The notes under the pieces were generated by a model that saw only the letters and a list, made by a program, of their open reading frames with translations, was not told the DNA's origin and did no database searches. A program made the position numbers and the translations under genes. This document shows, one piece after another, positions 2,733 through 26,396 of a DNA stretch of 35,960 bases. The DNA comes from an uncultured Gammaproteobacteria bacterium. GTDB taxonomy: Bacteria > Patescibacteriota > Microgenomatia > PFEM01 > CAZTHI01. Position 1 is the stretch's first letter; the number at the start of each line of letters is the position of its first letter. The stretch lies in contig CAZTHI010000003.1 of the NCBI GenBank assembly GCA_964613135.1, positions 1 to 35,960 of the forward strand, in the 5' to 3' direction.

Positions 2733-3150
2733 ACTTTTGGTTCAGATAATTTTGATACTTATCGATCAAATGCTTTTCCAATTTAAATAAGTCTTTCGCA
2801 TCATAATAAATTCTGAAAGCGTAGGCCCGAAACTCGTTATAATCAGAAAGCGTGCCATAGAGCAATTGGCTGTCTTTGGCGACCTGATAACAAAAAAGCG
2901 GGTCGGCTTGATGAAGAGATTTAAGGTCCAGCTCCCGATTTTGATCATCGCCAAAAACCCCAGCCAAATCTCCATGAAGACTAAGCAGGATTTCAAACTT
3001 AATCGGTTTTTTGCCCAAAACGGCAATATCTAAATCACTGTTTTTGCCGGCGGTGTTTTTGGCATAAGAACCATGTAAAAGTATCAATTTTAGCTGACAT
3101 TTTCCCCCGATTTTTTTAATTTTCTGCTTCTGTTCTTTGGTTATTTTCAT
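2725..3150 (-). CDS. mntA: MntA-like nucleotidyltransferase antitoxin
   Basis: LLHGSYAKNTAGKNSDLDIAVL gives the GS...DxD motif. Sits upstream of and overlaps hepT. Confidence 0.8.
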   Translation of the reverse strand: MKITKEQKQKIKKIGGKCQLKLILLHGSYAKNTAGKNSDLDIAVLGKKPIKFEILLSLHGDLAGVFGDDQNRELDLKSLHQADPLFCYQVAKDSQLLYGTLSDYNEFRAYAFRIYYDAKDLFKLEKHLIDKYQNYLNQKYA

Positions 3151-3159
3151 CTTGGTTAA

Positions 3160-4189: not shown

Positions 4190-4194
4190 AAATG
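4160..4194 (+). repeat. heptamer-periodic array (gagaatg tcgaatt gagaatg atgaatt aaaaatg), left arm around the four-helix-bundle gene
   Basis: 7-bp periodicity read directly. It is an imperfect reverse complement of 4555..4589. It spans the stop of the upstream ORF and the ATG of the next gene. Confidence 0.7.
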
Positions 4195-4548
4195 GAGAAA
4201 AGAAAAGACATTCTCGAAAGAACTTTTAAATTTGGGGTGGCGATCATCAAGCTGGCAAATTTTTTACCGAAAACGCCATCGGGTTTTACCATCACCAATC
4301 AAATTGTTCGTTCCGGAACCAGCGTTGGTGCCAACATTGAAGAAGCCCAAGATGCGTCAACTAAAAAGGAATTTATTAAAAGCGTCAGTATCGCCCTAAG
4401 GGAAGCAAGGGAAACTAAATTTTGGTTAAGAACGGCGACGGAATCGGATAACTTAAAACCGGAAATAACAAAAAACATTTTGAACGAATCGGAAGAATTA
4501 ATCAAAATTTTAGTGGCAATTATTAAAAAATCAAAAATGAATTTATGA
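4192..4548 (+). CDS. four-helix-bundle protein (23S rRNA intervening-sequence protein family)
   Basis: RTFKFGVAIIKL...QIVRSGTSVGANIEEAQ...KEFI..L.IALREARETKFWL is the family signature. Confidence 0.85.
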   Translation: MEKRKDILERTFKFGVAIIKLANFLPKTPSGFTITNQIVRSGTSVGANIEEAQDASTKKEFIKSVSIALREARETKFWLRTATESDNLKPEITKNILNESEELIKILVAIIKKSKMNL

Positions 4549-4554
4549 TTCTTT

Positions 4555-4589
4555 CATTCTCAATTATCAATTCTCAATTCTTAATTTCA
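4555..4589 (+). repeat. heptamer-periodic array (cattctc aattatc aattctc aattctt aatttca), right arm
   Basis: Five 7-bp units, complementary in family to 4160..4194. Ends 4 nt before the next ATG. Confidence 0.7.
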
Positions 4590-4593
4590 TAAT

Positions 4594-5328
4594 ATGGTCG
4601 ATCCTGCCAAAGTCGCCATCCGCGCTTCCACTCAGCAATATTTAAATATTGAGGATATTCTCGATGACGTGGTGATTTTAAAAGACGGCGGCGCCTGTTT
4701 GGTCATCATGGCCACCGCTATCAACTTTGGCTTACTTTCGGAAAAAGAGCAGGACGCCACCATTTACGCCTACGCCAGCCTGCTTAATTCCTTAACCTTC
4801 CCCATCCAAATTGTCATCCGTTCCCAAAAAAAAGATATTTCCGCTTATATCAAGCTTTTGGGCGAGGCGGAGGCCAAGGAAACCCGGCCAAAAAATAAAG
4901 AACAAATCCGCCAATACCGGAATTTTGTCACCCAAACCGTGCAAAAAAATGACGTCCTGGACAAAAAATTTTATTTAACCATTCCCATGACCGCCCTGGA
5001 ATTGGGGATTACTCAAGGCTTAACCGCCGGCCTGGCGCCCAAAAAAGGGCTTTCCTTTGAAAAAAATTATGTTTTGGAGCGGGCCAAAATTAATCTTTAT
5101 CCCAAGCGCGACCATTTATTCCGTTTGCTGGCCCGGCTGGGTTTAAAAAGCCGGCAACTAAACACGACCGAATTAATCCAACTTTTCTTCACGATTTATA
5201 ATCCGGAATCTTCGGGCCAAGGCATTGTTAGCGCAGAACAATATGAGGCGCCGCTGGTCCAATCAAATAAACCACCAACCGAGGTTTACAAAAAGATTAA
5301 CGAACTGGTTTCGGAGGGTGCCAAATGA
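4594..5328 (+). CDS. T4SS-associated protein resembling a VirB4 N-terminal domain (no ATPase motifs)
   Basis: YLNIEDILDDVVILKDGG..INFGLLSEKEQDA..YASLLNSLTFPIQIVIRS resembles the N-domain of Gram-positive VirB4/TrsE. Its stop overlaps the next gene's start (ATGA). Confidence 0.4.
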   Translation: MVDPAKVAIRASTQQYLNIEDILDDVVILKDGGACLVIMATAINFGLLSEKEQDATIYAYASLLNSLTFPIQIVIRSQKKDISAYIKLLGEAEAKETRPKNKEQIRQYRNFVTQTVQKNDVLDKKFYLTIPMTALELGITQGLTAGLAPKKGLSFEKNYVLERAKINLYPKRDHLFRLLARLGLKSRQLNTTELIQLFFTIYNPESSGQGIVSAEQYEAPLVQSNKPPTEVYKKINELVSEGAK

Positions 5329-8300
5329 ATCTGCCTTTTACCTCCCCCAAACCTCTTCCCCCAACATCGCCCAATGCCCAGCTGGCCAAAGGGCTAGTGG
5401 ATATCCAGGACGTCATCGCGCCGCCGGCGATTGAAGTTGATTTCGATTTTTTACGCATCGGCAACAAATATTTCCGCACCCTTTTTGTCGCCGGCTATCC
5501 GCGCTTTGTGTCCGCTAATTGGCTGGCGCCCTTAATTAATTTTGACCACACTCTGGAAATCGCCATGTATATTTATCCTATCGAGGGCCGGGGAGTGTTG
5601 GATGACTTGCGCCGGAAAACCGCAGAGATGGAAGCCGAAATGCAGATTGACTTGGAAAGAGGCCGCATGGTTGATCCGGGCACCAAAGCCAAATTGGAAG
5701 ACGCTCAAAAACTCCAGGAGCAACTGATCAAAGGTGTGGAGCGCTTCTTTCAGTTTGGGTTGTACGTGACTATTCCGGCCGATTCCTTACAAGAGTTAAA
5801 CCAAATTTCCAAACAAGTGGCTGCCACCCTGGGCTCGCTGCTGATTGTTGCCAAACACGCTACCCTGCAAATGGAGGACGGCTTTAAAACCACTATTCCT
5901 ACCTGCACCGACAAATTGATGATCACCCGCAACATGGACACCACCTCCTTGGCCACCACCTTTCCTTTTACCTCTTCGGAATTGACCGCCAACGAAGGCA
6001 TTTTATACGGCATCAACGAGCACAATGATTCTTTAATTGTCTTTGACCGGTTCACTTTGGAAAACGCCAACTCGGTGATTTTCGGAAAAGCGGGCTCGGG
6101 AAAATCGATTTATCGCGATTGTCCCATCCTTTTTGATGATGGTCAAGGGCCAAGAATCGGCAAGATTGGACCGTTGGTTGAGGGTTTGATTGCCAAAAAT
6201 GGAGCGAGCAAAATTGAGGAGGGAATTGAGGGAGTGATTAATCCCGAACTGAAAGTTTTCACTTTTGACCAAAATCTTAAAGGAAAATGGGCCAGTGTCA
6301 CTGTGGCCGCCCGGAAAAGATTTTCTCCTCGAAATCGTCTTTATCAAATTACAACCCAAAGTGGCCGCGAAATCACCGTTACTGCTGACCATAATTTAGT
6401 TGTTCTCCGTCATGGCAAAATTCGGGTAATGCGTAGTGAAGCCGTCAAAACCGGGGAAAGAATTCCTTTATCGAGGGTTTTACCCGCACCAGAAACTTGG
6501 CCCGGCCAGATTAACCCCAAAGATCTTGTTGACCAGTGGCCTGATTTCTTACCCCAACAGATTCCCCTCAATAAGGAAATTCTTTCCCTTCTAGGTCTTA
6601 TTACCAGCGAAGGTTACCTCGGCCCTCAACAGCTTTCAGTCTACAACGAAGTTCCCCTGGTACACAAGGCAATCATCTCGGGGGCAAAAATTCTGGGAGC
6701 AAAAATCAAGCCAATCTTTAAAAATAGAGGTAAAAATATTAAGGGGTTTTATCTTCAGCCAGCCTGGTTTAAAAAATTGTTCATCGCTCTTGGGGCCGGA
6801 GGGAAATCGGGAGAAAAACGGGTGCCGCCGGTTATTTTTTCCCTCTCCAATAAACAGGTTGCTAATTATCTGCGAGCTTATTTTGAAGGGGATGGGGAAA
6901 CTGGTTCCAATGGTGAAGTCGGGGCGACCTCTAAATCCAAAGAGCTTGTTTCTGATTTGACCTATTTGCTTTTGCGGTTCGGCATTGTCGCCCGAATCAG
7001 AAAAAAATGGAAAAGAGCAACTAATACAAATCATCAGGGAGACTACTACTATCAACTGGTTATTTCCGGCCAAGACAACCTCTTGTCCTTTATTAAAAAT
7101 GTTGGCTTCTTAAATGCCCAGAAGAATAGAAGAGTAGAAAAATTTATAAAACGAGCGACCAACACCAACGTTGACACCATTCCTGCTCTTGAGCCGATCC
7201 TCAAAAAACTTTACCGGGCTCTTTTTTCTGCTTCAGAAATCAAGGCCCCGGCTTACTTTTGCGAACTGATGAGAGGCGAGAAAACACCCTCCAGGGAAAT
7301 TCTCAAACAGATTATTAAGGATTGCGAGGGGCGCATCCAGGGGCTTAAAGAAAATCGCCAAAAAATTATCTTTCTCAAGAGCTTGCCTGATCTGAAAGAA
7401 CTTTATCAAAGGACCACTTATCACCGAAAGCTCAACCGTTTAGCCTGGCAAAATTTAGGTCAGTCCTGGAGATTAATGAAAAATCAAGCGGTTTCTCCAG
7501 GATTAGTAAATGTTTTACGGCTCTACCAGACTGTCGACGGCCAAACCATCGCCGTTCCTGAAGTAAAAGAAACGATCTATCAATCCTTTGCCGTCTCTGG
7601 TCTTTCTTTGCGAAAATTTGATGACGGACTTTGGGATGCCGTCACTCAAAACAAAAACGGCGACACTCAATATCAAAAAGTTATTCTGGCTATTCAGTAT
7701 CTTAACCAAAAATATCGTTCAATTCAGCTCTCCCTCCGTCATGCTGAAGAAAAACTTTCTTGGTTAAAGCTTTTAGCCAATTCTGATCTCTTTTGGGACC
7801 CCATTGCCAAAATCGAGAGAATCAAGCATCAAGAAAAATACGTCTATGACCTAATGGTTAACAACGAGGTTTTTCTGGCTGGTTTGGGGGGAATGTTTGT
7901 TCACAATTCCTATCTGGTCAAACTGGAAATCTTGCGGTCTTTAATGTTCGGCACGGAAATTATCGTCATTGACCCAGAGGCGGAATATAAAACTTTATGC
8001 GAGGCCGTTAACGGCGAATACATTACTTTCGGATTCCGCAGTCCTGCCAAAATTAATCCCTTTGACTTATCGGCGATTTACGAAGAAGGGGAAAACGAGC
8101 TGAACTTAAAAATCCTGGGGCTTCATTCACTCTTTAAGGTCATCATGGGCCAGCTGAACCCGACTGAAGAAGCGGTTTTGGACCGGGCCTTGATTTTGAC
8201 TTACAAAATGAAAGGCATTACCCCCGAACCGGCCACGCAAAACCGGGAGCCGCCACTGATGGAGGATTTGTACAAAGCCTTGCGGGGTATGGAAGAACCA

Positions 8301-8909
8301 CAGGCTTCACAACTCGCCGACCGGATTGAGAAATTCGTCAAGGGCAGCTTTATGGGTATTTTTGATCAGCCCTCCAACGTCAATATTAAAAACCCCTTTA
8401 CCGTTTTTTCCATCCGCGATCTGGAAGAAACACTCCGGCCGATTGCCATGTTTATCATTTTGGATTATATTTGGACGAAAATCCGCCGCGAAATGAAAAA
8501 AAGAATTTTGCTCGTGGACGAAGCCTGGTACCTGATGAAATATCCGGACTCGGCCAGCTTTATGTATTCGATTGCCAAACGGGCGCGTAAATATTATTTG
8601 GGCCTCACTACCATCACCCAGGACGTGGAGGATTTTTTGGGCACCGATTACGGCAAAGCGATTGTCAGCAACTCGTCGTTACAAATTTTAATGAAGCAAT
8701 CTTCGGCTTCCATTGATAAAGTGGCGGAAACCTTCTATCTTTCCGAGGGCGAAAAACAGCTGTTGCTTTCCGCAGACGTGGGCGAGGGCTTATTTTTTGC
8801 CGGCCAAAATCATGTCGCTCTCCGCGTGGTCGCTTCGCCCGAAGAGCACCGCCTGGTGACCACTAAACCTTCGGAGATTTTAGCCCAAGCCCAAAACCGG
8901 CCAATCTAA
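5325..8909 (+). CDS. VirB4/PrgJ-like type IV secretion ATPase interrupted by an intein
   Basis: VirB4-like N-domain (FRTLFVAGYPRFV), Walker A GKAGSGK|S split by an insert, Walker B RILLVDEAWYL, and ITQDVEDF. 1194 aa; 593 aa after excision. Confidence 0.85.
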   Translation: MNLPFTSPKPLPPTSPNAQLAKGLVDIQDVIAPPAIEVDFDFLRIGNKYFRTLFVAGYPRFVSANWLAPLINFDHTLEIAMYIYPIEGRGVLDDLRRKTAEMEAEMQIDLERGRMVDPGTKAKLEDAQKLQEQLIKGVERFFQFGLYVTIPADSLQELNQISKQVAATLGSLLIVAKHATLQMEDGFKTTIPTCTDKLMITRNMDTTSLATTFPFTSSELTANEGILYGINEHNDSLIVFDRFTLENANSVIFGKAGSGKSIYRDCPILFDDGQGPRIGKIGPLVEGLIAKNGASKIEEGIEGVINPELKVFTFDQNLKGKWASVTVAARKRFSPRNRLYQITTQSGREITVTADHNLVVLRHGKIRVMRSEAVKTGERIPLSRVLPAPETWPGQINPKDLVDQWPDFLPQQIPLNKEILSLLGLITSEGYLGPQQLSVYNEVPLVHKAIISGAKILGAKIKPIFKNRGKNIKGFYLQPAWFKKLFIALGAGGKSGEKRVPPVIFSLSNKQVANYLRAYFEGDGETGSNGEVGATSKSKELVSDLTYLLLRFGIVARIRKKWKRATNTNHQGDYYYQLVISGQDNLLSFIKNVGFLNAQKNRRVEKFIKRATNTNVDTIPALEPILKKLYRALFSASEIKAPAYFCELMRGEKTPSREILKQIIKDCEGRIQGLKENRQKIIFLKSLPDLKELYQRTTYHRKLNRLAWQNLGQSWRLMKNQAVSPGLVNVLRLYQTVDGQTIAVPEVKETIYQSFAVSGLSLRKFDDGLWDAVTQNKNGDTQYQKVILAIQYLNQKYRSIQLSLRHAEEKLSWLKLLANSDLFWDPIAKIERIKHQEKYVYDLMVNNEVFLAGLGGMFVHNSYLVKLEILRSLMFGTEIIVIDPEAEYKTLCEAVNGEYITFGFRSPAKINPFDLSAIYEEGENELNLKILGLHSLFKVIMGQLNPTEEAVLDRALILTYKMKGITPEPATQNREPPLMEDLYKALRGMEEPQASQLADRIEKFVKGSFMGIFDQPSNVNIKNPFTVFSIRDLEETLRPIAMFIILDYIWTKIRREMKKRILLVDEAWYLMKYPDSASFMYSIAKRARKYYLGLTTITQDVEDFLGTDYGKAIVSNSSLQILMKQSSASIDKVAETFYLSEGEKQLLLSADVGEGLFFAGQNHVALRVVASPEEHRLVTTKPSEILAQAQNRPI
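6105..7907 (+). mobile_element. 601-aa intein with a LAGLIDADG homing endonuclease domain, in the VirB4 P-loop
   Basis: Starts SIYRDCPILFDDG (block A). Has TADH (block B), LLGLITSEGY and YLRAYFEGDG (two LAGLIDADG motifs), and ends FVHN|S. Excision restores GKAGSGKSYLVK. Confidence 0.8.
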
Positions 8910-10206: not shown

Positions 10207-10616
10207 GAAGAATAAACGGCTTATTTATTTTGATTTTGATTTTAGCCGCCACGGCGAGCGGGTTAGTTTTTTGGCGCTTATTTTTATACCAGCCGCCGGC
10301 TCCGGCGGAAATTTCTGGCCCAACCCCAACCCCTGTCCAATTTATCTTGCCTTCACCAGCGCCTTTTCAGGAAGGCAAAGGAGAGTCTCCGACAGACCTT
10401 TTTCGTTCTCTTAAAGAACGATTTCCCTTGGCTGCCTTTTTGCCATACCAAACCGAAGCCTTCTCGATTGATTACACCGCTCCTTTATCTTTAAAAGTAG
10501 AAATTAGAGAGGCGAGTCAAGCGGCTCAAATTAAAAAAGACGTTTTGGAATGGATAAGTTCTCACGGAGTCGACCCGGCGACGCACCAAATCAGGTATCT
10601 TATTCCTGCACCCTGA
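10203..10616 (+). CDS. small membrane-anchored protein (positionally PrgL/VirB8-like; function unknown)
   Basis: GTG start overlaps the upstream stop (GTGA). N-terminal TM LFILILILAATASGLVFW. No motif recognised. Confidence 0.45.
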   Translation: MRRINGLFILILILAATASGLVFWRLFLYQPPAPAEISGPTPTPVQFILPSPAPFQEGKGESPTDLFRSLKERFPLAAFLPYQTEAFSIDYTAPLSLKVEIREASQAAQIKKDVLEWISSHGVDPATHQIRYLIPAP

Positions 10617-11727
10617 CCGGCATAATCAAATGCAGGGCCTCTTTTTCTTCGGCATTGGTAAAAACACCCGGCGCCAGCGGTCCGGTCATCTCAAAATTAA
10701 TGAGCTGGGCTTCGTTGGAATTTAAGAAATCCAAAAGATAGCGGGCATTAAAAGCGATACTGCCACCTTCACCTTCGGTCTTGATTTCGACTTCAATCGC
10801 GTTTTCCCCAACTTGCGCCGCATTGGCGCTGACTTGCAACTTTGAGCTTTGAACTTTGAACTTAATAATATTGGCTGATTCACGGGCAAAAATGGCCGCC
10901 GTCCGCACCGCTCCCAGCAAGCTGACTCTATCCAAGGTGATTTTCGTGGTCGCCTTCCCCGGTAAGATTTTTTCGTAATCGGGGAATTTCCCTTCAATCA
11001 AGCGGGTGACAATTTCCGCTTCGGGCGTGGAAAAAATCGCCTGATTGGCTTGCGGCGTAATCGTTAAGCCCAAAGTTTTACCTTCTTCCGCCTCGCCGAT
11101 AATTCTACCAACCTCCGCCAGGGTTCGGGAAGGAATCAGCAAACCGGCCGCCAACTCTTTAATTTCTTTGCCTTTTAAAGTGGTTTTAATTTTTTGAAAG
11201 CTCAAACGATAGCCATCGGTGGCCACCAAAGTCAGATCATCTTCTTCCAAACGGACCAAAACGCCGTTGAGTTGAGGCCGGCCTTCATCTTGGGCCGCCG
11301 CAAAAGCCACTTGACCAATCGCTTTAGAAAAAGCGTGGCTTTCCAAAGAAATTTCCGGCTCGGACGTGATCGTCGGCACACTGGGAAATTCACCGGCCGG
11401 CAAACAGACAAAACTGGCCTGGTAATTGCCGCAGCCTAAAGACAGCAAATTTTCTTTCAGCTCCAAATCGATTTTCCCGGCCGGTAAAGAAGCGACGTAT
11501 TCGTTGAAAATTTTGGCGGGAATGGAAGTCGCGCCTTCTTTTTCAATCTTGGCGCCCACCCAAAAATTAATGCCGGTTTCCAAATTGGTGGCGGAAAGTT
11601 TCAGTCGGCCTTTATCGGTGGCCAGTAAAATATTGGCTAAAATCGGTAATTGAGCTTTAGTGGTCACGGAGCGACTAACAATGGTAAGACCACGAACAAG
11701 GTTTTCTTGGAAAACGGAAAGTTTCAT
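10600..11727 (-). CDS. dnaN: DNA polymerase III beta sliding clamp
   Basis: 375 aa. MKLSVFQENL...LPILANILL...ATDGYRL...ALHLIMPVR are classic DnaN blocks. Lies downstream of dnaA. Confidence 0.95.
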   Translation of the reverse strand: MKLSVFQENLVRGLTIVSRSVTTKAQLPILANILLATDKGRLKLSATNLETGINFWVGAKIEKEGATSIPAKIFNEYVASLPAGKIDLELKENLLSLGCGNYQASFVCLPAGEFPSVPTITSEPEISLESHAFSKAIGQVAFAAAQDEGRPQLNGVLVRLEEDDLTLVATDGYRLSFQKIKTTLKGKEIKELAAGLLIPSRTLAEVGRIIGEAEEGKTLGLTITPQANQAIFSTPEAEIVTRLIEGKFPDYEKILPGKATTKITLDRVSLLGAVRTAAIFARESANIIKFKVQSSKLQVSANAAQVGENAIEVEIKTEGEGGSIAFNARYLLDFLNSNEAQLINFEMTGPLAPGVFTNAEEKEALHLIMPVRVQE

Positions 11728-11913: not shown

Positions 11914-13302
11914 TTATGCATAAAGTCGTTTTTTTATCTCCGCGATATCCACCCGCATATCCTCAGAGCTTGGGAGCAGCTTGGTGATTTTATCCACACC
12001 GTGCATGACGGTGGTGTGATCCCGGTCCCCCAACAGCTGGCCGATCTCCATCAACGGCGTGTTAAATTCGGTCCGTAAAAGATACATCAGGATTTGCCGG
12101 GGCACGACAATGATTTTATTTCTCTTGGGTCCGGTAAGATCGCCGACCTTGAGATTAAAATAAAAAGCGACACTCTTCACCATTTCTTTGGGCTTGACTA
12201 ATTTTTTCGGCAAACTGGCTTGGCTGGCTTGGCCCAATAAAGCTTGGACCAGCTCCGGAGAGATAGGAATATTTTTCATTTGAATCTCGCTGCTAAGTCT
12301 GGTTAAGAAACCTTCCATGCGCCGGATGGAGGTGATGTTGCCGGCAATGAGCTGGGCCACATCCATGGGCATTTTAATACCTCGCTGCTGGGCTTTAATC
12401 AGCAAAATGGCCGTTCGTAATTCAAAATCCGGTGGCTGAATATCAATCGTCAGGCCGCCCTCAAACCGGGATCTAAGACGGTCTTCCAATTTGCTGATTT
12501 CTTCCGGCCGGCGGTCGGAGGTTAGCACGATTTGGCCGCCGACGCGCAAGATCGCGTTAAAAGTGTGGAAAAACTCTTCCTGAATCTTTTCTTTACCGGC
12601 GATAAACTGGATATCGTCCACCATTAAAATTTTGGCGGTGCGGTATTTCTGCTTAAAATCATCAGTGGTTTTCTTGCGGATAGCATCCACGATTTCGTTG
12701 GTAAATTCTTCGCCGGTGCAGGAAATAATTTTGGTTCGGGGGTGGCGGCTCAAAACCGCGTTGCCGATTGCTTGCATTAAATGTGTTTTACCAACACCAA
12801 CACCACCGTATAGAAACAAGGGGTTGTAGGCCTTTCCAGGGGACTGCGCGACCGCTTGCGCCGCGGCATGGGCCATTTGGTTGGTGGAGGAAACGGCGAA
12901 GGTCTCAAAATTGAAATCCGGCCGCAGACCGATGCTTGCCACCGCCTCCTTGACCTCCGGTCTTTCCTCTATTCCCTCAAACAAGGGCTGTTCTTTTTGG
13001 CTCGCTTGCCCCACCGTAGCCTTGGCGAAGGGGGGCCTGCTACTTTGTTTGACCGTAAAAACCACGTCGTTTTTCATTCCCGTCGCCTGGTCCAAGGCGG
13101 TTTTAATTAAACCGTAGTAGCGGTTTTCAATGGTGTTGCGGGCAAAAAGATTGGGACAACCGATTTCCGTGATTTGCCGGTTGGCCGCAATCTTTTTAAA
13201 ACCGGTCACAAAAGTTTGGGGAAACCAAGTGGCGAAATTAGCCGAGGACAGGTTCAATTTTAAATTTTCTAAGACAGTTTGCCAAACTTTTTCTTTATCC
13301 AT
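11914..13302 (-). CDS. dnaA: chromosomal replication initiator DnaA
   Basis: GGVGVGKTHL Walker A, MVDDIQF, the LRSRF sensor, and the C-terminal DNA-binding block HTTVMHG. ATG at 13302 preferred over the TTG at 13326. Confidence 0.95.
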   Translation of the reverse strand: MDKEKVWQTVLENLKLNLSSANFATWFPQTFVTGFKKIAANRQITEIGCPNLFARNTIENRYYGLIKTALDQATGMKNDVVFTVKQSSRPPFAKATVGQASQKEQPLFEGIEERPEVKEAVASIGLRPDFNFETFAVSSTNQMAHAAAQAVAQSPGKAYNPLFLYGGVGVGKTHLMQAIGNAVLSRHPRTKIISCTGEEFTNEIVDAIRKKTTDDFKQKYRTAKILMVDDIQFIAGKEKIQEEFFHTFNAILRVGGQIVLTSDRRPEEISKLEDRLRSRFEGGLTIDIQPPDFELRTAILLIKAQQRGIKMPMDVAQLIAGNITSIRRMEGFLTRLSSEIQMKNIPISPELVQALLGQASQASLPKKLVKPKEMVKSVAFYFNLKVGDLTGPKRNKIIVVPRQILMYLLRTEFNTPLMEIGQLLGDRDHTTVMHGVDKITKLLPSSEDMRVDIAEIKKRLYA

Positions 13303-13335
13303 TGAAGGCGGGCGAGGTAAATTCAATCTAACAAC

Positions 13336-13353
13336 TTATCCACAATTTGTCAA
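13336..13353. repeat. 18-bp direct repeat TTATCCACAATTTGTCAA, copy 1 (DnaA box plus dnaA -35)
   Basis: Identical to 15267..15284. Minus strand reads TTGACA-N17-TAGATT upstream of dnaA, with the DnaA box in the spacer. Confidence 0.8.
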
Positions 13354-13375
13354 CTGGTAAAAAATCTTGTCTAAT

Positions 13376-13962
13376 TCAATCATTCGCCGGGTTCTTATTA
13401 ATCTTTCTTACGACAAACAATTCTCTATTTTCCACTGAATCAAAGGGAACGATTGTAATAGAGTATCCGGTTTGTTGGTATACCTCAATAATTCTGTCTC
13501 TAATCCTTTGACATTTCTCGTACGAACCAAACATGGCTGGACGTTCATTGGCGTGTTGACTAAAGGTATTTTCGTCTAATAAATCAAACACAAAAACAGT
13601 GTTGCCATAACGATGGTCTTTAATAATATCAATTAAGTCTGCAGATACGGGAACATCAAGTAATTCATGCAAGACGACCAAATCAGGTAATCCACGATCA
13701 AAAAAGGAAATATCGTATAATCGAGCATCAGAGTAATCAACCATAAAAAGTCTCTGGCTTTGACTAAGGAAATCTCTTAAATCCGAAAAAATTACTTCTA
13801 AGGGTAAACTGTGTAGGGAGACATCTATTCCGCCGCGTCTCCTTAATTGATCTACTTGTTGTTTAATTACTCTTACAACTGGCTCTTCAAATGTTTTAAA
13901 TCTTTTCCCCAGTTCTCGAATTGTAGTCGTTTTACCAGAACGCGGGGCACCGGTAATCCCAT
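13376..13962 (-). pseudogene. small P-loop ATPase (AAA_28/NadR-type predicted ATPase family), frame broken right after its ATG
   Basis: The frame reads ITGAPRSGKTT..FFDRGLPD..RYGNTVFVF..VPFDSVENR, but the only upstream ATG (13962..13960) is out of frame by one nt at a G3 run. An in-frame TAG lies at 13969..13967. Confidence 0.6.
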
Positions 13963-14771
13963 ATTTCTATGAATATTTGCAATTTCTTCTTGTTTGTCCA
14001 TTGAGCAAATTGTGATAAAAGTTGGCCCGGCTGAAGAAATAAAAGTGCAGATCGGACCATGGTGCTGCAAAGAAAGCACTAGGCTTTTATATTGTTCGCT
14101 AATTCCGGGGAACATATTATTGTACCCCTGCATTATTACTTCATCCGAGTCAACCTTTTCTATTGCCCTTCCTACAGTTTTAATATCTCTTGTCTCCATT
14201 GCTTCCCGAATTTCCTGAAATCTTTGAGCAAAAAAAGGTTGCATGTACTGAGCAGAATCCAAGATGTGTTGAAAAACAGCTTCAGCTTCCCTTGCCATTG
14301 CCCCCCCCTAGAGTCTGGTTTAGGGAAGTTAGGGTTGTCTTCGATTTCTTCTCCATAGTTTTGTGCTAAAAATAAAGGAAGAGCCTCTGTTTTTATTGGT
14401 TCACCAGCTAGTTTATTGATAGCTAAAGCGATGGCGGTAGCTAATGCTGCCGAAGAACCAGATCCTGTATGAGAATAAGGAAAATCGTTACTCGCCTCAA
14501 CATGGACACCCCCCCGATAGTTAATGCTTTTTCTAACAATTTCAGCAAAATGTCGAACCAGGCCCGGGCGTCTCACGCTGCTGCCAACAATTAGTTCGTT
14601 TCCTTCAATGGAATCGGCTTCTGCATGAGTCATCAAATCTACCCCCAAAGATATTTCTCCATAGTTAAATTGCCCCGTAGTTTCTCGTTTTACTAGAGCA
14701 ATAGGGTCTTTTATCAAACAATTTAATCTGCCGGGGACGCTTACACAAATATGGCGAAATCTTTTACCCAT
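13873..14771 (-). pseudogene. GHMP-kinase-like gene split by a frameshift at a G8 (C8 on plus strand) homopolymer
   Basis: The N-terminal ORF has PYSHTGSGSSAALATAIALA (GHMP motif II). The C-terminal ORF has SSAGPTFITI (motif III). The frames switch at C8, 14301..14308. Confidence 0.6.
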
Positions 14772-14817
14772 TTCTTTAGCACATCACCTTGATTAGTCTG
14801 TGGTCGCTCCGAGTTGT

Positions 14818-15213
14818 TCATGCCTTTGGGTTTTTGATGTTCTTAATATCGGTTTTTATGGCCTCTAGTATAAATTCTCTTCTCAAATCAAGATGTTCAA
14901 TTTCTTCCCGACTAAACCAACCTAGGCCCATACATTCCTTTTCGTTTAGCTTTAAACTTCCACCAACAGCCCTTCCTTTATATACTTTTACTTCTGTATC
15001 TTTCTCATCAAACCTAAATGTTTTAAGAAGATTATTTGCTTCAACCTCCAAGCCAGTTTCTTCTTCTGCTTCCCGGATCGCACCTTCTTCCGGCGATTCA
15101 CTGCCTCCCACTCTTCCGGCTGAAATAGTCCACCCTATATCGTTAGGCTTATTCTCCTGGACCAATAAGTATTTATCATTATGACTGATTAGAATAGCGG
15201 AGATGGTAATCAT
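14818..15213 (-). CDS. NUDIX hydrolase
   Basis: Nudix box GRVGGSESPEEGAIREAEEETGLEV. TGCTATAAT lies upstream. Confidence 0.85.
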   Translation of the reverse strand: MITISAILISHNDKYLLVQENKPNDIGWTISAGRVGGSESPEEGAIREAEEETGLEVEANNLLKTFRFDEKDTEVKVYKGRAVGGSLKLNEKECMGLGWFSREEIEHLDLRREFILEAIKTDIKNIKNPKA

Positions 15214-15266
15214 AAAAACCTAAGTTAAAGTCAAAACATTATAGCATAAATTAGGGATTTTTCTTT

Positions 15267-15284
15267 TTATCCACAATTTGTCAA
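15267..15284. repeat. 18-bp direct repeat TTATCCACAATTTGTCAA, copy 2 (DnaA box plus rpmH -35)
   Basis: Identical to 13336..13353. Confidence 0.8.
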
Positions 15285-15306
15285 GGAGAGAAAAGTCTGG
15301 TATTAT
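15278..15306 (+). promoter_or_regulatory. rpmH promoter TTGTCA-N17-TATTAT, 6 nt before the ATG (leaderless)
   Basis: Spacing counted directly. There is no SD between the -10 and the ATG at 15313. Confidence 0.5.
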
Positions 15307-15312
15307 TATGAT

Positions 15313-15450
15313 ATGCCGAAAAGAACCTGGCAACCGAAAAAATTAAAAAGAGTCAAAAGGCATGGCTTTTTGCGGCGCATGGACACCGCTAACGGCAGGA
15401 TGGTCATTAAAAGACGCAGGGCCCGCGGCCGCAAGCGACTCACCGTCTAA
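15313..15450 (+). CDS. rpmH: 50S ribosomal protein L34
   Basis: Manual translation gives [45 protein letters not shown] (45 aa). Too short for the ORF track. Confidence 0.95.
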
Positions 15451-15462
15451 AAACTCGAAGCA

Positions 15463-15570
15463 CGAAATTCGAAATTCTAAACAATATCAAAACTCAAATA
15501 TCAAATGTTTAAAATTTTGGATTTTGATGATTGGGATTTGTTTAGGATTTAGAAATTAGAATTTAGAGTT
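15463..15570 (+). repeat. long imperfect hairpin built from two heptamer-periodic arrays (rpmH-rnpA spacer)
   Basis: 5' arm: cgaaatt cgaaatt ctaaaca atatcaa aactcaa atatcaa. 3' arm: ttttgga ttttgat gattggg atttgtt taggatt tagaaat tagaatt tagagtt. Several paired blocks, for example 15472-15480 with 15556-15564. Confidence 0.7.
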
Positions 15571-15580
15571 TATCTTTTTT

Positions 15581-15940
15581 ATGCTTCCCAAACAATATCG
15601 GCTTTCCTTAAAAACTGAGTTGGCCCGGATTAAAAAAGATAACCGAATTTTTCCCGGTAATTTTTTCGGTTTGCTGGTGGCGCCGCAATTGTCGAAAACC
15701 AAAGACAGTTTTCCCCGCATTGCCTTTATTGTTTCCAAAAAAATTCATTTGAAGGCCAACCGCCGCAATCGGGTCCGCCGGCTGATGCGGGAAGCAGCCA
15801 GGGCTTTGCTGCCACAATTCCGGCCGGGGTGGGATTTTGTTTTTTTGGCCAAACGGACCATTTTGGGCAAGACTCTGGCGGAAGTTAAGGCGGAGACAGA
15901 AAGAATTTTAAATGAAAAAATTTACCCTTCGACTAATTAG
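15581..15940 (+). CDS. rnpA: ribonuclease P protein component
   Basis: 119 aa and basic, with [29 protein letters not shown]. Canonical position after rpmH. Confidence 0.9.
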
Positions 15941-16148
15941 ACTTTACCAAAAATCATTCTTGGTTCGTTCCTCAATTCTGAAGGCTCTTTTTCTTTCTGA
16001 TGCTGCCTGTCGTTTCCGGCCCACTTGCTCGGAATATACCTATCAGGCCATCGAAAGGTATGGTATAATGCGAGGAAGTTGGTTGGGATTAAGGCGGATC
16101 TCGAAGTGTCACCCATGGAGTCGAGGGAGGTTTGATCCTTTGAAATAA
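15912..16148 (+). CDS. yidD: membrane protein insertion efficiency factor YidD
   Basis: [19 protein letters not shown]...[11 protein letters not shown] is the YidD signature. Confidence 0.9.
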
Positions 16149-16228
16149 ATCCAAATTACAAAGTTCAAATGGCAAATCATCCGCCAGCCAGCGGATTGGA
16201 CTTTGAACTTGAATTGGCATTTGGATTT
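16147..16228 (+). repeat. long imperfect hairpin from heptamer-periodic arrays (yidD-yidC spacer)
   Basis: 5' arm: aaatcca aattaca aagttca aatggca aatcatc. 16147-16156 pairs perfectly with 16219-16228, and the GC clamp 16079-16084-equivalent atccgc/gcggat closes the loop cagcca. Confidence 0.6.
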
Positions 16229-16258
16229 TGAAATTGAGATTTTAGTATTATTAGTTTT

Positions 16259-17098
16259 ATGACTGAACTCTGGAACGTTTTGCTATACCAACCGTTTGTT
16301 AATCTCCTGATGCTTTTATATCAGCTACTTTTCCATAATTTTGGCCTGGCGATTATCGTTTTGACGGTGGCCCTCCGTACCGTTTTAATTCCCTTGACTC
16401 TCCCCTCCATGAAGTCGGCCGAAAAAATGCGCCAATTGGCGCCGGAATTAGAACGGCTTAAGAAAAAATACGGTTCCGACAAGCAGGCATTTGCTAAAGC
16501 GCAAATGGATTTTTATCGCCAACAGGGTATCAACCCGGCTGCCGGCTGTTTGCCGCAAATTGTCCAACTGGTGATTTTAATTGCTCTCTATCAGGCCTTT
16601 ATCCAGGTGTTAAATCCCAACGCCCAGGAGGTAGTTAGAAAGCTAAACACTTTGCTTTATCAACCGTTAAAATTGGCGGAAGACACGGTCATCAACACCC
16701 AATTTCTCTGGCTGAATTTGGCCAAGCCGGACGTGATTAAAGTGGCCGGTTTGGGCTTTCCTTTGCCGGGGCTATTTTTAATCGCCGCGGCCTTAATTCA
16801 ACTGATCTCTTCCAAAATGATGATGCCGGTGCTAGCGGCCGTCCAAAAAGACGCGGCCCAAACTCCGGAAAAAACCGACGACATGGCGACCAGCATGCAG
16901 ACACAAATGACCTATCTTTTTCCGTTGATGACCATTCTAATCGGCTTTACTTTTCCTTCCGGTTTGGTTTTGTACTGGTTTATCTTTTCTTTGTTTACCG
17001 CCGTTCAGCAATATTTTGTGAGCGGCTGGGGAGGCTTGACACCATGGATAAATAAATTGAAAATTGAAAATGGAAAATTTAAAATTAAAGACCATTGA
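16259..17098 (+). CDS. yidC: membrane protein insertase YidC (short form)
   Basis: 279 aa with GLAIIVLTVALR..PL, GINPAAGCLPQIVQ, and GLVLYWFIFSLFT. The C-terminal tail is encoded by a heptamer array. Confidence 0.9.
   Translation: MTELWNVLLYQPFVNLLMLLYQLLFHNFGLAIIVLTVALRTVLIPLTLPSMKSAEKMRQLAPELERLKKKYGSDKQAFAKAQMDFYRQQGINPAAGCLPQIVQLVILIALYQAFIQVLNPNAQEVVRKLNTLLYQPLKLAEDTVINTQFLWLNLAKPDVIKVAGLGFPLPGLFLIAAALIQLISSKMMMPVLAAVQKDAAQTPEKTDDMATSMQTQMTYLFPLMTILIGFTFPSGLVLYWFIFSLFTAVQQYFVSGWGGLTPWINKLKIENGKFKIKDH
17054..17088 (+). repeat. heptamer array (aaattga aaattga aaatgga aaattta aaattaa) spanning the yidC 3' end and the jag 5' end
   Basis: Five 7-bp units. It encodes the YidC tail KLKIENGKFKIK and the Jag N-terminus MENLKLK in different frames. 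Confidence 0.7.
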
Positions 17099-17534
17099 GG
17101 AAATAACGCAAGATTTACTGAGCCGCTTGGGGGTGGAAGTAAAGATCTCTGTTGAAGAAAGCGAAGGGGTTTTTAATGTCCAGCTGGAAACTAAGGAGCC
17201 GGGGATTTTAATCGGCTATCACGGCGAAACCTTGGCGGCCATTCAGCTGATCGTGGGAATGATGGTTTGGCGGAAATCGGGAGCGTGGACCAAAATCCTG
17301 GTTAATGTTGGCGATTACCGGGAAAGACGCCAGGAATCTTTGGCAAGAATGGCTGTCTCAGTGGCTCAGGAAGCTAAACTCTCCGGCCAACCGCAAACCC
17401 TACCGCCGATGTCTGCTTTTGATCGCCGCCTAATTCACTTGGCTCTGGCGGCGGACCCGGCAGTGGAAACGCTTTCCGAGGGTGAAGGCAAAGACCGGCA
17501 TGTGGTCGTTAAGACTAAACAACCTTCATCGTAG
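17070..17534 (+). CDS. jag: Jag/KhpB-like KH + R3H RNA-binding protein
   Basis: GYHGETLAAIQLIV (KH-like) and FDRRLIHLALA (R3H). ATG at 17070; the ORF track begins at a TTG at 17064. Canonical position after yidC. Confidence 0.8.
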   Translation: MENLKLKTIEEITQDLLSRLGVEVKISVEESEGVFNVQLETKEPGILIGYHGETLAAIQLIVGMMVWRKSGAWTKILVNVGDYRERRQESLARMAVSVAQEAKLSGQPQTLPPMSAFDRRLIHLALAADPAVETLSEGEGKDRHVVVKTKQPSS

Positions 17535-18738
17535 TTTTTTTGGGGCACTTTGTTTGCTACTTCCTGTCCAGCTTGGCGCTCACTTTTGGCCTAATTTTGC
17601 TTATGTCATGGGCCTGCGGATCGATTATCTGGCGCCGACAATTTATTTAACCGATCTTTTGGTCGTAGTAATACTGGGATTATGGGGCTTGGACTGTTGG
17701 CGAATTCGCGAATTACGAATTACGAATTACGAATTACGGAAATATTGGTGGATATTAGCAGTTTTTGTTTTGTTGCTAGCCGGTTCGCTCCTGGCTCAAA
17801 ACCAAAGGGCAGCGCTGTATAAATTTGCCAAAATCGCGGAGTTTTCTTTACTTGGTCTTTATGTGGCCAAGAGCCGCGAGACGCGAGACGTCATACGAAA
17901 GACGCTCTCTATTGCTGTTCTCTACTCTTCTCTGATTGCGCTGGTTCAGTTTTTCAAACAATCTTCCCTGGGTGATCTTTTTTGGTGGTTGGGCGAGCGG
18001 ACTTTTACCGTGGCCACGCCGGGAATTGCCAAAGCAGTGGTCAACGGTGAACTTTTAATGCGGCCCTACGCCACCTTCTCCCACCCCAACGCTCTGGCCG
18101 GCTTTCTGCTGGTGGGTTTAATCTTAACCTTGCCATATTTTCTTCAAAGGCATAAGCTATTCACTATTCCCTATACCCTATTCCCTATTCTGGCCATCGC
18201 CCTCTCTTTCTCCCGCTCGGTTTGGCTGGTGGGCTTGCTCGTGGCATTTTTCTGTCTTTTCCGAAAAAAGAAATTCTTTCTAGTTATTAGTTATTTGTTA
18301 TTAGTTATTAGTTGTTTGTTATTAGTTACTAGTTATTCCGCCGACGAGGCGATTTCTCAGCGACTCCAATTGATTAAAGCGGCAGTTTTAATGATCCAAG
18401 GCAACCTTTTGGCGGGCGTCGGTTTGAATAATTTTTTGGTCCGCTTGCCGGAATTCTGGGGACCGATCGGCACTACCTTCTGGCTCCAACCGGTGCATAA
18501 TATTTATCTTTTGATCGCCGCCGAAACCGGCCTGACCGGCTTGCTGGTTTTTCTCTGGTTTTTGGTTTTAACCTTCAAGAAATTATCAATTCTCCATTCT
18601 CCATTGTCCATTGCGCTTGGTGCCATCCTGTTGCTGGGCCTGGCGGATCATTATTGGCTGACGCTGCAACAAAACCAACTTCTCTTCGCGCTTGTTTTGG
18701 GGCTGAGTTGGGAAGGACAAAGAGGGTTTAAAAGTTAA
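17482..18738 (+). CDS. O-antigen ligase/polymerase-like (Wzy_C) polytopic membrane protein
   Basis: Multiple TM helices, with RPYATFSHPNALAGFL and PVHNIYLLIAAETGLTGLL. Start uncertain (GTG 17482 or ATG 17500). Contains five short-period arrays. Confidence 0.7.
   Translation: MKAKTGMWSLRLNNLHRSFFGALCLLLPVQLGAHFWPNFAYVMGLRIDYLAPTIYLTDLLVVVILGLWGLDCWRIRELRITNYELRKYWWILAVFVLLLAGSLLAQNQRAALYKFAKIAEFSLLGLYVAKSRETRDVIRKTLSIAVLYSSLIALVQFFKQSSLGDLFWWLGERTFTVATPGIAKAVVNGELLMRPYATFSHPNALAGFLLVGLILTLPYFLQRHKLFTIPYTLFPILAIALSFSRSVWLVGLLVAFFCLFRKKKFFLVISYLLLVISCLLLVTSYSADEAISQRLQLIKAAVLMIQGNLLAGVGLNNFLVRLPEFWGPIGTTFWLQPVHNIYLLIAAETGLTGLLVFLWFLVLTFKKLSILHSPLSIALGAILLLGLADHYWLTLQQNQLLFALVLGLSWEGQRGFKS
17701..17738 (+). 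repeat. heptamer tandem repeat, (cgaatta)x4 perfect plus a degenerate unit, inside a CDS
   Basis: cgaattcg cgaatta cgaatta cgaatta cgaatta cgg. Encodes RIRELRITNYELRK. Confidence 0.85.
18157..18191 (+). repeat. heptamer array (ctattca ctattcc ctatacc ctattcc ctattct) inside a CDS
   Basis: Five units. Encodes LFTIPYTLFPIL. Confidence 0.8.
18281..18336 (+). repeat. heptamer array, 8 units (tagttat tagttat ttgttat tagttat tagttgt ttgttat tagttac tagttat), inside a CDS
   Basis: 56 bp. Encodes LVISYLLLVISCLLLVTSY. Confidence 0.85.
18581..18615 (+). repeat. heptamer array (aattatc aattctc cattctc cattgtc cattgcg) inside a CDS
   Basis: Same unit family as 4555..4589. Roughly complementary to 17054..17088. 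Confidence 0.75.
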
Positions 18739-18759
18739 AAAGTTTAAGGGTTTAAAAAG
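18724..18759 (+). repeat. octamer-periodic array (gggtttaa aagttaaa aagtttaa gggtttaa), left flank of the second four-helix-bundle gene
   Basis: 8-bp periodicity. It supplies the last codons and the stop of the ligase-like ORF. Confidence 0.7.
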
Positions 18760-18760
18760 A

Positions 18761-19225
18761 CTAAGAGGGTTTGAGTTTCTGGAGAGTGTCGGGGGCGTAT
18801 TTTCGCATAAATTCTTCCCAGCTTTCTTCTTTTTTGGCCGATTTATATTTTAAACCTTTATACCCTGAAACCTTTAAACTTTGAATTAGGTAGTAAATCA
18901 TGGCCGAAACCCGTTTGGCTAAAACCGAAGCTTGTTGGAAATCCTGGGGGCTAATGAATTTTTGATCCAAGGCAATATAAAGTTGGGTGCGGGCCTCGCC
19001 GCAGGATCCCTTGGCGATAAAAAGAAAATAAATCAGTTCTTCTCTGGTGCCGCGTTCAAACCCCTCGGCGATATTGGAAATCACGGAAACGGCCGCCCGC
19101 TGAATTTGGTCTTTTAAGGAAAAGTCGGAGAAAGTTTTTTGGCGGGTTAGCCCATAAATGAGGTTAACTAATCTTTTCCCCTCCTGCCAGCAAGTTAAGT
19201 CTTTGAATCTTTTAACCGACGTCAT
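18761..19225 (-). CDS. four-helix-bundle protein (23S rRNA intervening-sequence protein family)
   Basis: FKDLTCWQEGKRLV..IY..T..F..DFSLKDQIQRAAVSVISNIAEGFERGT..E.IYFL.IAKGSCGEARTQL is the family signature. Confidence 0.85.
   Translation of the reverse strand: MTSVKRFKDLTCWQEGKRLVNLIYGLTRQKTFSDFSLKDQIQRAAVSVISNIAEGFERGTREELIYFLFIAKGSCGEARTQLYIALDQKFISPQDFQQASVLAKRVSAMIYYLIQSLKVSGYKGLKYKSAKKEESWEEFMRKYAPDTLQKLKPS
18848..18886 (+). repeat. octamer-periodic array, complement of the flanking arrays, inside the 3' part of the four-helix-bundle CDS
   Basis: Reverse complement reads aagtttaa aggtttca gggtataa aggtttaa. Encodes the SLKVSGYKGLKYK tail. Confidence 0.65.
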
Positions 19226-19228
19226 ACT

Positions 19229-19257
19229 TTAAGGTTTAAAAGTTTAACGGTTTAAGG
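19229..19257 (+). repeat. octamer-periodic array (tttaaggt ttaaaagt ttaacggt ttaagg), right flank and leader of the second four-helix-bundle gene
   Basis: Direct repeat of the 18724..18759 family, inverted relative to 18848..18886. Confidence 0.7.
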
Positions 19258-19289
19258 CCCGCCTGGCGGCGAGGCGGGGTTTAACCAGA

Positions 19290-19310
19290 TTTTAGCACAC
19301 TGTGCTAAAA
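19290..19310. promoter_or_regulatory. 21-bp palindrome TTTTAGCACA-C-TGTGCTAAAA forming face-to-face extended -10 elements
   Basis: Plus strand: TGCTAAAAT (19303..19311), then 7 nt, then the ATG at 19319. The minus-strand mirror element points at the four-helix-bundle gene. Confidence 0.5.
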
Positions 19311-19318
19311 TAACGGCG

Positions 19319-26320: not shown

Positions 26321-26396
26321 AATGGAATTCGATATATCAGTTTACTAACTGCTATAGCGAATGGAATTCGATATATCAGTTTACTAACTGCTATAG
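26321..26396. repeat. perfect 37-bp tandem duplication (AATGGAATTCGATATATCAGTTTACTAACTGCTATAG) separated by CG
   Basis: Copies at 26321..26357 and 26360..26396. The second copy contains the stop codon of the kinase gene. Confidence 0.9.

Follow-up and report, generated by a model that had tools for sequence, protein, structure and literature searches.

The 35,960-nt stretch of contig CAZTHI010000003.1 (assembly GCA_964613135.1) analysed here, hereafter the window, carries a small minus-strand gene for a four-helix-bundle protein (18761..19225, 154 aa) that is surrounded and partly overlapped by short-period tandem arrays. The gene belongs to the PF05635/TIGR02436 family (named "23S rRNA intervening-sequence protein"; Avd-like), with the family domain at residues 8-118 followed by a C-terminal extension. 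Gene and arrays together form a block (~18723-19300) that was inserted, antisense, into a conserved yidC-jag-wzy-wzx operon, at the junction of wzy and wzx. We refer to this block as cassette b, and to a second locus of the window in which a four-helix-bundle gene stands between arrays as cassette a.

Three arrays of period 8, their units consisting of TTTAAA plus two variable bases, lie around and inside the cassette b gene (18724-18759, 18848-18886 and 19229-19257). Tandem Repeats Finder (TRF), at period 8, reports 4.0 copies of GTTTAAAA at 18726-18757, 3.9 copies of the complementary-type TTTAAACC at 18849-18879 and 2.8 copies of GTTTAAAA at 19234-19255. The array downstream of the gene (18723..18759; TRF, D1, I1) forms the left end of the inserted block and comprises four units that are of (Y)TTTAAAC type in gene sense; the upstream array (19229..19257; TRF, D1) abuts the start codon and has the same type and orientation. 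The internal array (18848..18886, minus strand) is of AAAGGTTTAAA type in gene sense. A preliminary description of the locus had taken the flanking arrays for direct repeats of one RRGTTTAA family and had placed a complementary array inside the 3′ coding region, and a repeat search bears out both points: the outer arrays form a direct repeat (D1, 86% over 28 nt), and the internal array pairs with either flank as an inverted repeat (I1, 32 nt at 78%; I2-I4, 22-31 nt at 77-86%, including 22 nt at 86%). As also described there, the left array terminates the convergent ligase-like gene, wzy, supplying its last four codons and stop (GGG TTT AAA AGT TAA; stop at 18736-18738). Beyond the upstream array, a G+C-rich hairpin (CCCGCC...GGCGGG, 19252..19284; I8) sits between GGTTTAA cores within the inserted block, and core-hairpin-core units resembling it were seen in three other loci (L084, L102 and L109).

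The arrays are concentrated at the locus well beyond expectation. RRGTTTAA occurs 21 times in the 36-kb window (11.9 expected), and 8 of these 21 matches fall inside the 534 nt of the locus (Poisson P = 1.7e-9). The window holds 16 arrays of period 6-10, compared with 0.8 in dinucleotide-preserving shuffles, and 10 arrays that score at least 40, compared with none in 20 shuffles. Across 10 independent assemblies of the same organism, only single-nucleotide polymorphisms were seen and array copy number was constant, so nothing points to slippage of the phase-variation kind. Neither intrinsic terminators nor sigma-70 promoters exceeded shuffle expectation near the cargo gene, and Rfam searches at gathering thresholds gave 0 matches in the window and 0 in 20 loci.

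The insertion is evident from two relatives (L183 and L184) that keep the yidC-jag-wzy-wzx order with no four-helix-bundle gene at the wzy-wzx junction, their flippases being 63% and 58% identical to that of the window and their wzy stop and wzx start lying 15 and 5 nt apart, respectively. The preliminary description had not seen cassette b as an insertion in a conserved operon; these empty sites reveal it. Alignment of the junctions with both relatives places host sequence up to ~18722 (…GGACAAAGAG) and again from 19301, where the window reads TGTGCTAAAATAACGGCGATG (TGTGCTAAAATAA..ATG) and L184 has the equivalent TGTGCTACAATAACTTCGATG, so that ~578 bp have been inserted. At the right junction (19289..19311; I11), the 11 nt of ATTTTAGCACA (19289-19299) repeat, in inverted form and without mismatch, the host sequence TGTGCTAAAAT (19301-19311), which the alignment also finds at the uninterrupted wzy-wzx junction of the relatives. 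At the left junction (18713..18772; D3), a 17-nt direct repeat stands around the left array (AAGGACAAAGAGGGTTT, 18713-18729, and AAAGACTAAGAGGGTTT, 18756-18772), one copy being the end of host wzy and the other, on the opposite strand, that of the cargo gene. An insertion event of template-switch type is hinted at by the microhomologies at the junctions and by the inverted host copy. Since cassette b occupies the same site in the same orientation in L171, L173 and L174, with cargo proteins 64-79% identical to that of the window, the insertion is old and has been retained.

The cargo protein matches PF05635 at E 1.9e-30 (105.6 bits against a cut-off of 33.8), its sole Pfam match, and TIGR02436 at 100.5 bits (cut-off 24), in agreement with the four-helix-bundle assignment made earlier. 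Its only solved relative by sequence is XCC0516 (PDB 2GSC, five chains; E 8.5e-12). Homologues number in the thousands: one search for PF05635/TIGR02436 members yielded 5,984 representatives of clusters formed at 90% identity, and several copies are present in many genomes. The motif RxxxSxxxNxxE, part of GxxRxxxSxxxNxxE (PMC3936711), is present as R43, S47, N51 and E54 in QIQRAAVSVISNIAEG, with S in place of the leading G of the longer form, and S47, N51 and E54 are invariant in a 39-sequence alignment. Searches with PADLOC defence-system models assigned the two four-helix-bundle proteins of the window to 0 families.

Immediately after the family domain, the internal array supplies codons 114-126 (IQSLKVSGYKGLK). 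The earlier claim that it encodes the C-terminal tail stands as far as the overlap with coding sequence goes, but the array does not reach the extreme C-terminus, as ~28 further residues follow. Nor does it encode a free tail: ESLKVSxFKGLKYK is kept in all homologues of 45-79% identity, with G124 invariant and K118 and K128 at least 90% conserved, and L[KR]xSxx[KR]GxK[FY] is kept across many phyla in the wider subfamily, including lineages whose arrays do not match the motif. Because the motif is kept in homologues and in the wider subfamily, this stretch is not a readthrough tail, and an origin by readthrough of a former 3′ arm is ruled out. At the nucleotide level, the motif Leu codons in ten genes of the TTTAAA-type subgroup are TTA in 17/17 cases (45/121 elsewhere in the same genes), and the motif Gly codon is GGT in 10/10 (21/63 elsewhere). 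Synonymous sites are thus frozen although the proteins have diverged far enough for silent changes to be saturated, which argues that the nucleotide sequence of the internal array is held as well. Since the ten genes are mutually related and allow no clean probability, this pattern is suggestive of a nucleotide constraint on the array.

Cassette a is a separate insertion of canonical form (4156-4589), located between PrgI-like and TraC-like genes of a type IV secretion-like operon. Its cargo gene (4192..4548, plus strand, 118 aa) encodes a TIGR02436 four-helix-bundle protein (100.6 bits), and is preceded by a 5′ arm of GAGAATG/GAATTGA units with period 7/14 (4156..4187, plus strand; TRF, I5, I7) and followed by a complementary 3′ arm of ATTCTCA x4.4 (4554..4586, plus strand; TRF, I5) that ends 8 nt before the TraC-like start. 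The arms are mutually inverted (26 nt at 81%; inverted-repeat score 13.5 vs 9.0), with a predicted duplex of -27.5 kcal/mol (z -3.8). At the empty sites of L180-L182, the PrgI-like and TraC-like genes lie 1-2 nt apart, the PrgI-like proteins being 78%, 59% and 56% identical to that of the window. Cassette a has given the PrgI-like gene 11 additional array-encoded residues with the final AAT TAA kept, its cargo start codon replaces the old stop/start overlap, and the target AATTAA resembles an array unit. The preliminary description held that the same logic governs both loci, which does not hold: cassette a is canonical, with inverted flanks, whereas cassette b is a variant with direct-repeat flanks. 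The same secretion-like operon also contains a VirB4/TraG-like ATPase gene (5325..8909) with an intein that bears a LAGLIDADG endonuclease domain (Pfam).

The association between array and gene is general. We examined 160 loci encoding relatives, each roughly 8 kb, taken from metagenomes and species-representative genomes of Acidobacteriota, delta-proteobacterial groups, Verrucomicrobia, Planctomycetes, Nitrospirae, Chloroflexi, Bacteroidetes and the Candidate Phyla Radiation (CPR); the sample was drawn with two peptide patterns and represents one large part of PF05635, 8 distant members and cassette a rather than the whole family. Counting arrays of at least 2.8 copies and period 7, 8 or 9, the density is 5.5 per kb in the 120 nt next to the gene ends and 0.31 per kb further off, a difference of ~18-fold. 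Among 140 genes, TRF found arrays on both sides of 94, on one side of 36 and on neither side of 10, with a median of 4.4 copies upstream and 4.6 downstream (interquartile range 4.0-5.3). Upstream and downstream flanks form an inverted repeat that scores above all 20 shuffles in 87% of 141 testable loci (median score 19.5 vs 7.7). Arms are ~32 nt long, the upstream arm ending a median of 39 nt before the start codon and the downstream arm beginning a median of 6 nt after the stop codon, which it often overlaps.

The polarity of the arrays is consistent across the family, since the upstream core in the sense strand is GTTCAA-like in 78 loci (GTTCAA, GTCCAA, GTTCCA, GTTTCA etc.) and its complement stands downstream; G versus C content was uninformative as a measure of polarity (60 vs 41), and core hexamers were used instead. 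Distant members on viral contigs (32-50% identity) have the array-gene-array layout in 7 of 8 cases, with cores such as AGAGTGG/CACTCTC and TTAGCTT/AAGCTAA. Cassettes share the orientation of the upstream neighbour in 94 loci (opposite in 11) and of the downstream neighbour in 91 (opposite in 17), ~87-90% being co-oriented. The suggestion that these elements are defined by architecture rather than by sequence is therefore upheld by the inverted arms of many different units and by the viral-contig members, and scoring the flanks of four-helix-bundle genes found arrays well beyond the two loci of the window.

Comparison of copies that are at least 78% identical in DNA indicates that array-gene-array is a discrete unit. 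At left ends, 19 of 27 alignments stop no more than 15 nt from the upstream array's outer edge, and the other 8, which are syntenic orthologues, continue for >300 nt with none in between. At right ends, 14 of 34 stop equally close to the downstream array's outer edge, 11 continue for >300 nt, 2 run 100-300 nt past it and 7 stop short, in the gene or in the variable tail. L052 and L098 share 93% identity that is confined to array-gene-array. The typical cassette extends exactly from the upstream stop codon to the downstream ribosome-binding site; in L008 it stands between a stop codon and the following gene's ribosome-binding site, where the orthologous site in L014 has a solo array only (GTTCCAATC x4.3).

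Within the arms, conservation is concentrated in the cores. In seven orthologous loci with flanks ~80% identical, 28 of 28 upstream GTTCAA cores are intact and the 3-nt spacers vary. Over 62 loci, core positions agree between arms in 96% of comparisons regardless of which units are compared, while spacer positions match their pairing partner in 61% and non-partner units in 40%; this partner test replaces a comparison of in-register and shifted arm identity, which was biased by the choice of register. The arms are thus inverted copies of each other to a degree, imperfectly so.

Arrays also occur without the gene. The loci contain 167 inverted array pairs, 109 of which enclose the four-helix-bundle gene and ~40 of which are gene-less hairpins with 2-130 nt between the arms, and some gene-less pairs or solo arrays repeat the core found in the local cassette (L053, L014). 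In appearance these arrays are like non-autonomous derivatives and like the "paired sites" of Geobacter discussed below. Intergenic examples near cassettes include a solo array in L014 (4825-4863) and pairs in L006 (166-280), L053 (2123-2234) and L125 (7493-7730). In L098, a 143-nt array (3072-3214; TTGAACCGC x15.9) and the upstream arm of the cassette (3926-3977) flank a 126-aa open reading frame (ORF) that looks RelE/ParE-like by eye and, being enclosed in this way, raises the possibility that other cargo may sit between such arrays.

Taken together, these observations make it very probable that cassette b is an insertion cassette of a widespread class. Its more specific identity, as a copy of an insertable cassette in which a PF05635/TIGR02436 gene carries short-period tandem arrays as its ends, akin to the ORF-bearing intervening sequences (IVS) of 23S rRNA genes but located at a protein-gene junction, is the reading that we favour with some reserve. 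The arrays themselves are likely to be functional cis elements of the cassette rather than scars. Each end would consist of about 4-5 units of a 6-nt core and a 1-3-nt spacer, amounting to ~32 nt per arm, and would act in cis. It is conceivable, but somewhat doubtful, that in co-oriented insertions the inverted arms close the operon transcript into a ~30-bp stem of RNase III type that sets the cassette apart, by analogy with the rRNA-borne relatives, in which RNase III cuts the stem. More tentatively still, the repeated cores could be read by the encoded protein as a homopentameric ring, one core per subunit, given that arrays have 4-5 units of 7-9 nt, that cores are conserved where spacers vary freely, and that the ring has five subunits.

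Several observations weigh against this interpretation. No nuclease, recombinase or transposase domain is recognisable in the cargo protein, no target-site duplication is evident at the junctions, where microhomology and an inverted host copy are found instead, and cassettes must move rarely, as cassette b has stayed at one site for long (64-79% protein identity). The sole pointer to binding of the arrays by the protein is a copy number that matches the pentamer. As for an RNA stem, 39% of spacer positions are unpaired, and arm mismatches have no excess of G.T over A.C (101 vs 113), so that base pairing in the sense transcript is not demonstrably selected. Cassette b itself is antisense to its operon, in the minority orientation, its flanks lack significant complementarity to each other (inverted-repeat score 8.0 against shuffles of up to 10.5; upstream array with 3′ flank, -8.7 kcal/mol), and the predicted fold of its whole minus-strand transcript is no more stable than that of shuffles (z +0.88). 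The coverage of the locus sample, as given above, also limits how far the family-wide results extend.

Alternatively, the arrays could be double-stranded DNA operators (iterons) for the encoded protein or for IHF/HU, regulating the gene or shaping DNA with no role in an RNA stem or in mobility. Conservation of cores amid drifting spacers, strand-symmetric mismatch types and a copy number held at about 4-5 would all suit such operators, and comparable paired tandem-repeat sites in Geobacter metallireducens have been read as IHF/HU sites (PMC2700814). However, a period of 7-9 bp is out of step with the helical repeat, and by our own reasoning it would be geometrically hard to bend a duplex of ~32 bp around a small ring. 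An operator role also leaves the co-orientation with host operons unexplained, and sits poorly with arrays that are the exact limits of homology, travel with the gene and often overlap neighbouring coding ends. We consider this alternative unlikely.

The pairing potential of cassette b bears on another alternative, in which the internal array would serve as an RNA switch, pairing alternately with the leader or the 3′ flank and so controlling how the four-helix-bundle gene is translated, how stable its mRNA is or where it terminates. Both flanks, read in gene sense, are C-type (YTTTAAAC), the polarity of the upstream array being reversed relative to the family norm, and the only G-type partner is the tail-coding array. 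The duplex of leader and internal array is predicted at -21.8 kcal/mol (z -3.7) and that of internal array and 3′ flank at -24.0 kcal/mol (z -5.8), no other part of the ORF being a better partner for the 3′ flank than the internal array; energies are similar on the other strand, and arm duplexes overall range from -22 to -27 kcal/mol (z -3.7 to -5.8). Both pairings proposed in the preliminary description are therefore of non-negligible stability, yet beyond these moderate duplex energies the proposed switch between them finds no support: folding the minus-strand RNA, as that description had suggested, gives a minimum-energy structure that holds the internal x 3′ pair only, in a region that as a whole does not stand out from shuffles. 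A leader array that abuts the start codon, the frozen synonymous sites of the internal array and the occurrence of the three-array layout in L002 and L171 would also be expected of a switch.

Close relatives speak against leader pairing as the conserved feature. All have a downstream C-type array right after the stop codon, whereas upstream they differ: the array there is C-type in L171, L174 and L002, as in the window, G-type (canonical) in L173, L177 and L178, where its opposite polarity leaves it unable to pair with the internal array, and absent in L175. With the downstream array constant and the upstream array variable, the conserved feature of the subgroup is the 3′ hairpin of tail-coding and downstream arrays. 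Nor is complementarity between flanks and tail a family rule: its mean score equals the control in 55 loci, and an internal copy of the core occurs in only 7 of 78, which together rule it out. The lack of wobble bias among arm mismatches further disfavours a selected RNA pairing, and we regard a switch as rather improbable. Under the cassette interpretation, the 3′ hairpin would be the conserved pairing of cassette b, as follows from the reversed upstream polarity, and pairing of leader and internal array would be optional.

L175, L177 and L178 mark a second conserved position for related four-helix-bundle genes, with proteins 62-63% identical to that of the window. The gene directly follows a methionyl-tRNA synthetase-like gene in L175 and L177 and lies three genes downstream of it in L178; its downstream neighbour encodes TatD in L177 and L178 but a glycosyltransferase in L175. 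The cargo gene of L175 lacks an upstream array and begins within the preceding gene, with a 4-nt overlap.

The arrays might also be scars of insertion, produced by slippage, fold-back synthesis or microhomology-mediated template switching and left with no later function. The 11-nt inverted host copy and 17-nt direct repeat at the junctions of cassette b, the similarity of the cassette a target to its array unit, the variable upstream polarity among close relatives, and the existence of solo arrays and gene-less pairs could all be accommodated in this way. Scars would not, however, be expected to keep their cores intact in orthologous loci at ~80% identity where spacers have changed, to hold arm length and copy number within narrow limits across phyla, to maintain a consistent polarity, or to freeze the codons of an internal array, and we give this alternative little credence. 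Chance low complexity in an A+T-rich genome, joined to a Lys/Leu-rich tail, might be invoked for a TTTAAA core that is palindromic and A+T-rich and a tail motif rich in Lys and Leu codons, but is refuted for practical purposes by the excess and local clustering of arrays in the window (16 vs 0.8; P = 1.7e-9) and by the recurrence of the architecture with G+C-containing cores in many phyla.

Among known systems, the ORF-bearing 23S rRNA IVS (e.g. of Coxiella and Leptospira) are like the cassettes in that PF05635/S23p cargo stands between complementary ends of ~28-32 nt. In Coxiella burnetii, inverted repeats at the two ends of the IVS enclose the S23p ORF and form a 28-bp stem within which RNase III cuts, and 3-4 tandem heptamers (GACAGAT), differing in number by strain, precede the S23p start (PMC4990558). 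This IVS has been called a selfish genetic element, one that its host tolerates, with a hypothesis of former mobility also cited, and the S23p homologue XCC0516 is a homopentameric toroid (PMC4990558). 23S_rRNA_IVP ORFs also occur in insertions of both 16S and 23S rRNA genes in CPR bacteria (bioRxiv 10.1101/2024.02.27.582315), and such genes have been found inside cas operons (PMC3936711). Unlike the IVS, the window cassettes sit at protein-gene junctions (Rfam finds no rRNA; the neighbours of cassette b are wzy and wzx), and their arms are whole tandem arrays. Terminal inverted repeats that could form a stem around the ORF are present in cassette a and in 87% of family loci but absent in cassette b, with its direct-repeat flanks and a partner inside the coding region. 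Because they are not in rRNA, the window cassettes are not strict members of the rRNA IVS class.

In REPIN-RAYT systems, a gene is flanked by its own type of inverted repeat, and distinct gene copies have distinct cognate repeats. The cassettes are similar in having inverted flanking repeats, differing units and gene-less pairs nearby, but this likeness is one of architectural analogy only: their cargo is a four-helix bundle of 120-155 aa with no Y1 transposase (PF01797) or catalytic domain, and their repeats are tandem units of 7-9 nt rather than single repetitive extragenic palindromes. Geobacter metallireducens has paired sites, the two members a variable distance apart and on opposite strands with 3-5 tandem repeats of 7-9 nt each, that lie between and within genes and fall into classes 1-3, as well as 49 four-heptamer elements (PMC2700814). 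These paired sites look, by analogy, like gene-less versions of the cassettes; they were described without an enclosed four-helix-bundle gene and read as sites for global regulators such as IHF/HU, many having IS110/IS481 elements inserted beside them.

Avd, a homologous four-helix-bundle pentamer, works on nucleic acid (PMC10053308). Nevertheless, membership in a diversity-generating retroelement was rejected on the basis of the Avd model and adjacency to a reverse transcriptase: NF033474 does not match the cassette b protein and reaches 19.3 bits against a cut-off of 80 for that of cassette a, no reverse transcriptase was found among 15 window proteins scanned against Pfam, and the neighbours of cassette b match Wzy_C and Polysacc_synt. 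An insertion sequence or miniature inverted-repeat transposable element was likewise rejected, there being no transposase and no clean target duplication. The short tandemly repeated repetitive sequences of cyanobacteria and the TAACTGA repeats of Beggiatoaceae consist of 2-6 copies of a heptamer in tandem, for the most part just upstream of start codons and occasionally within ORFs (PMC4679880). Such genome-wide repeats use one unit per genome and are direct repeats without a complementary partner, whereas each cassette has its own unit and a partner. A full-text search found no paper that ties the PF05635 family to flanking tandem arrays in general, with the early papers on Leptospira and Coxiella IVS beyond its reach and partial earlier descriptions possible.

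A broader proposal, drawn by analogy with RAYT and REPIN, would make PF05635 proteins the dedicated partners of a cross-phylum set of tandem-array elements that takes in cassettes, gene-less hairpins and solo arrays, including those in frame within genes; we offer it as a speculation that is probably wrong in this general form. The pentamer ring would then read ~5 cores on single-stranded RNA or DNA much as TRAP reads its triplets, mediating spread or maintenance, and ORF-bearing rRNA IVS would be a special case that landed in rRNA helices.

PF05635/TIGR02436 is among the most abundant protein families without known function, and how ORF-bearing rRNA IVS arose has been an open question since the 1990s. 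Should these genes almost always move as array-gene-array cassettes and insert at gene junctions, rRNA IVS would represent one landing site of a general element, and the arrays would become candidate ligands for the pentamer. The same would explain odd C-terminal extensions of neighbouring genes and heptamer-encoded peptides in many genomes, and would point to a class of insertion element without a recognisable transposase.

Further arrays are scattered through the window. The O-antigen-ligase-like wzy gene (Wzy_C; 17482..18738) holds four in-frame heptamer arrays: CGAATTA x4.3 (17709-17738), CTATTCC x4.9 (18157-18190), TAGTTAT x8.1 (18281-18337) and ATTCTCC x3.4 (18589-18612). In the TAGTTAT array, every third unit has TTG for TAG, which avoids an in-frame stop. 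The wzy orthologue of L171 (53% identical) has arrays at three of the same positions with other units (CTCAAAT, TTTTACT and CCTATACT, gene sense), as well as a CGAATTA array where the window has none, and protein length barely differs. Solo heptamer arrays of about 3-5 copies, with no complementary partner within 1.5 kb, lie at 17054-17086, 15463-15572 and 10838-10863. An AAATTGA x4.7 array covers the point where the end of yidC and the start of jag overlap, arrays of CGAAATT, AATATCA and TTTAGAA stand just upstream of rnpA, and an AACTTTG array lies inside ORF 10600..11727.

The genes dnaA, rnpA, yidC and jag (KhpB-like) at 11914..17534 mark a chromosomal origin region. Judging by named homologues of the PrgI-like and flippase proteins, the host is a CPR bacterium of Microgenomates / Shapirobacteria-like affinity. 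At 2301..3150, on the minus strand, genes for a HepT-like RNase and a nucleotidyltransferase (MNT/Pol-beta) overlap in a toxin-antitoxin-like arrangement. Finally, a 39-nt unit is perfectly duplicated in tandem at 26321-26396 (1.9 copies, TRF score 152).

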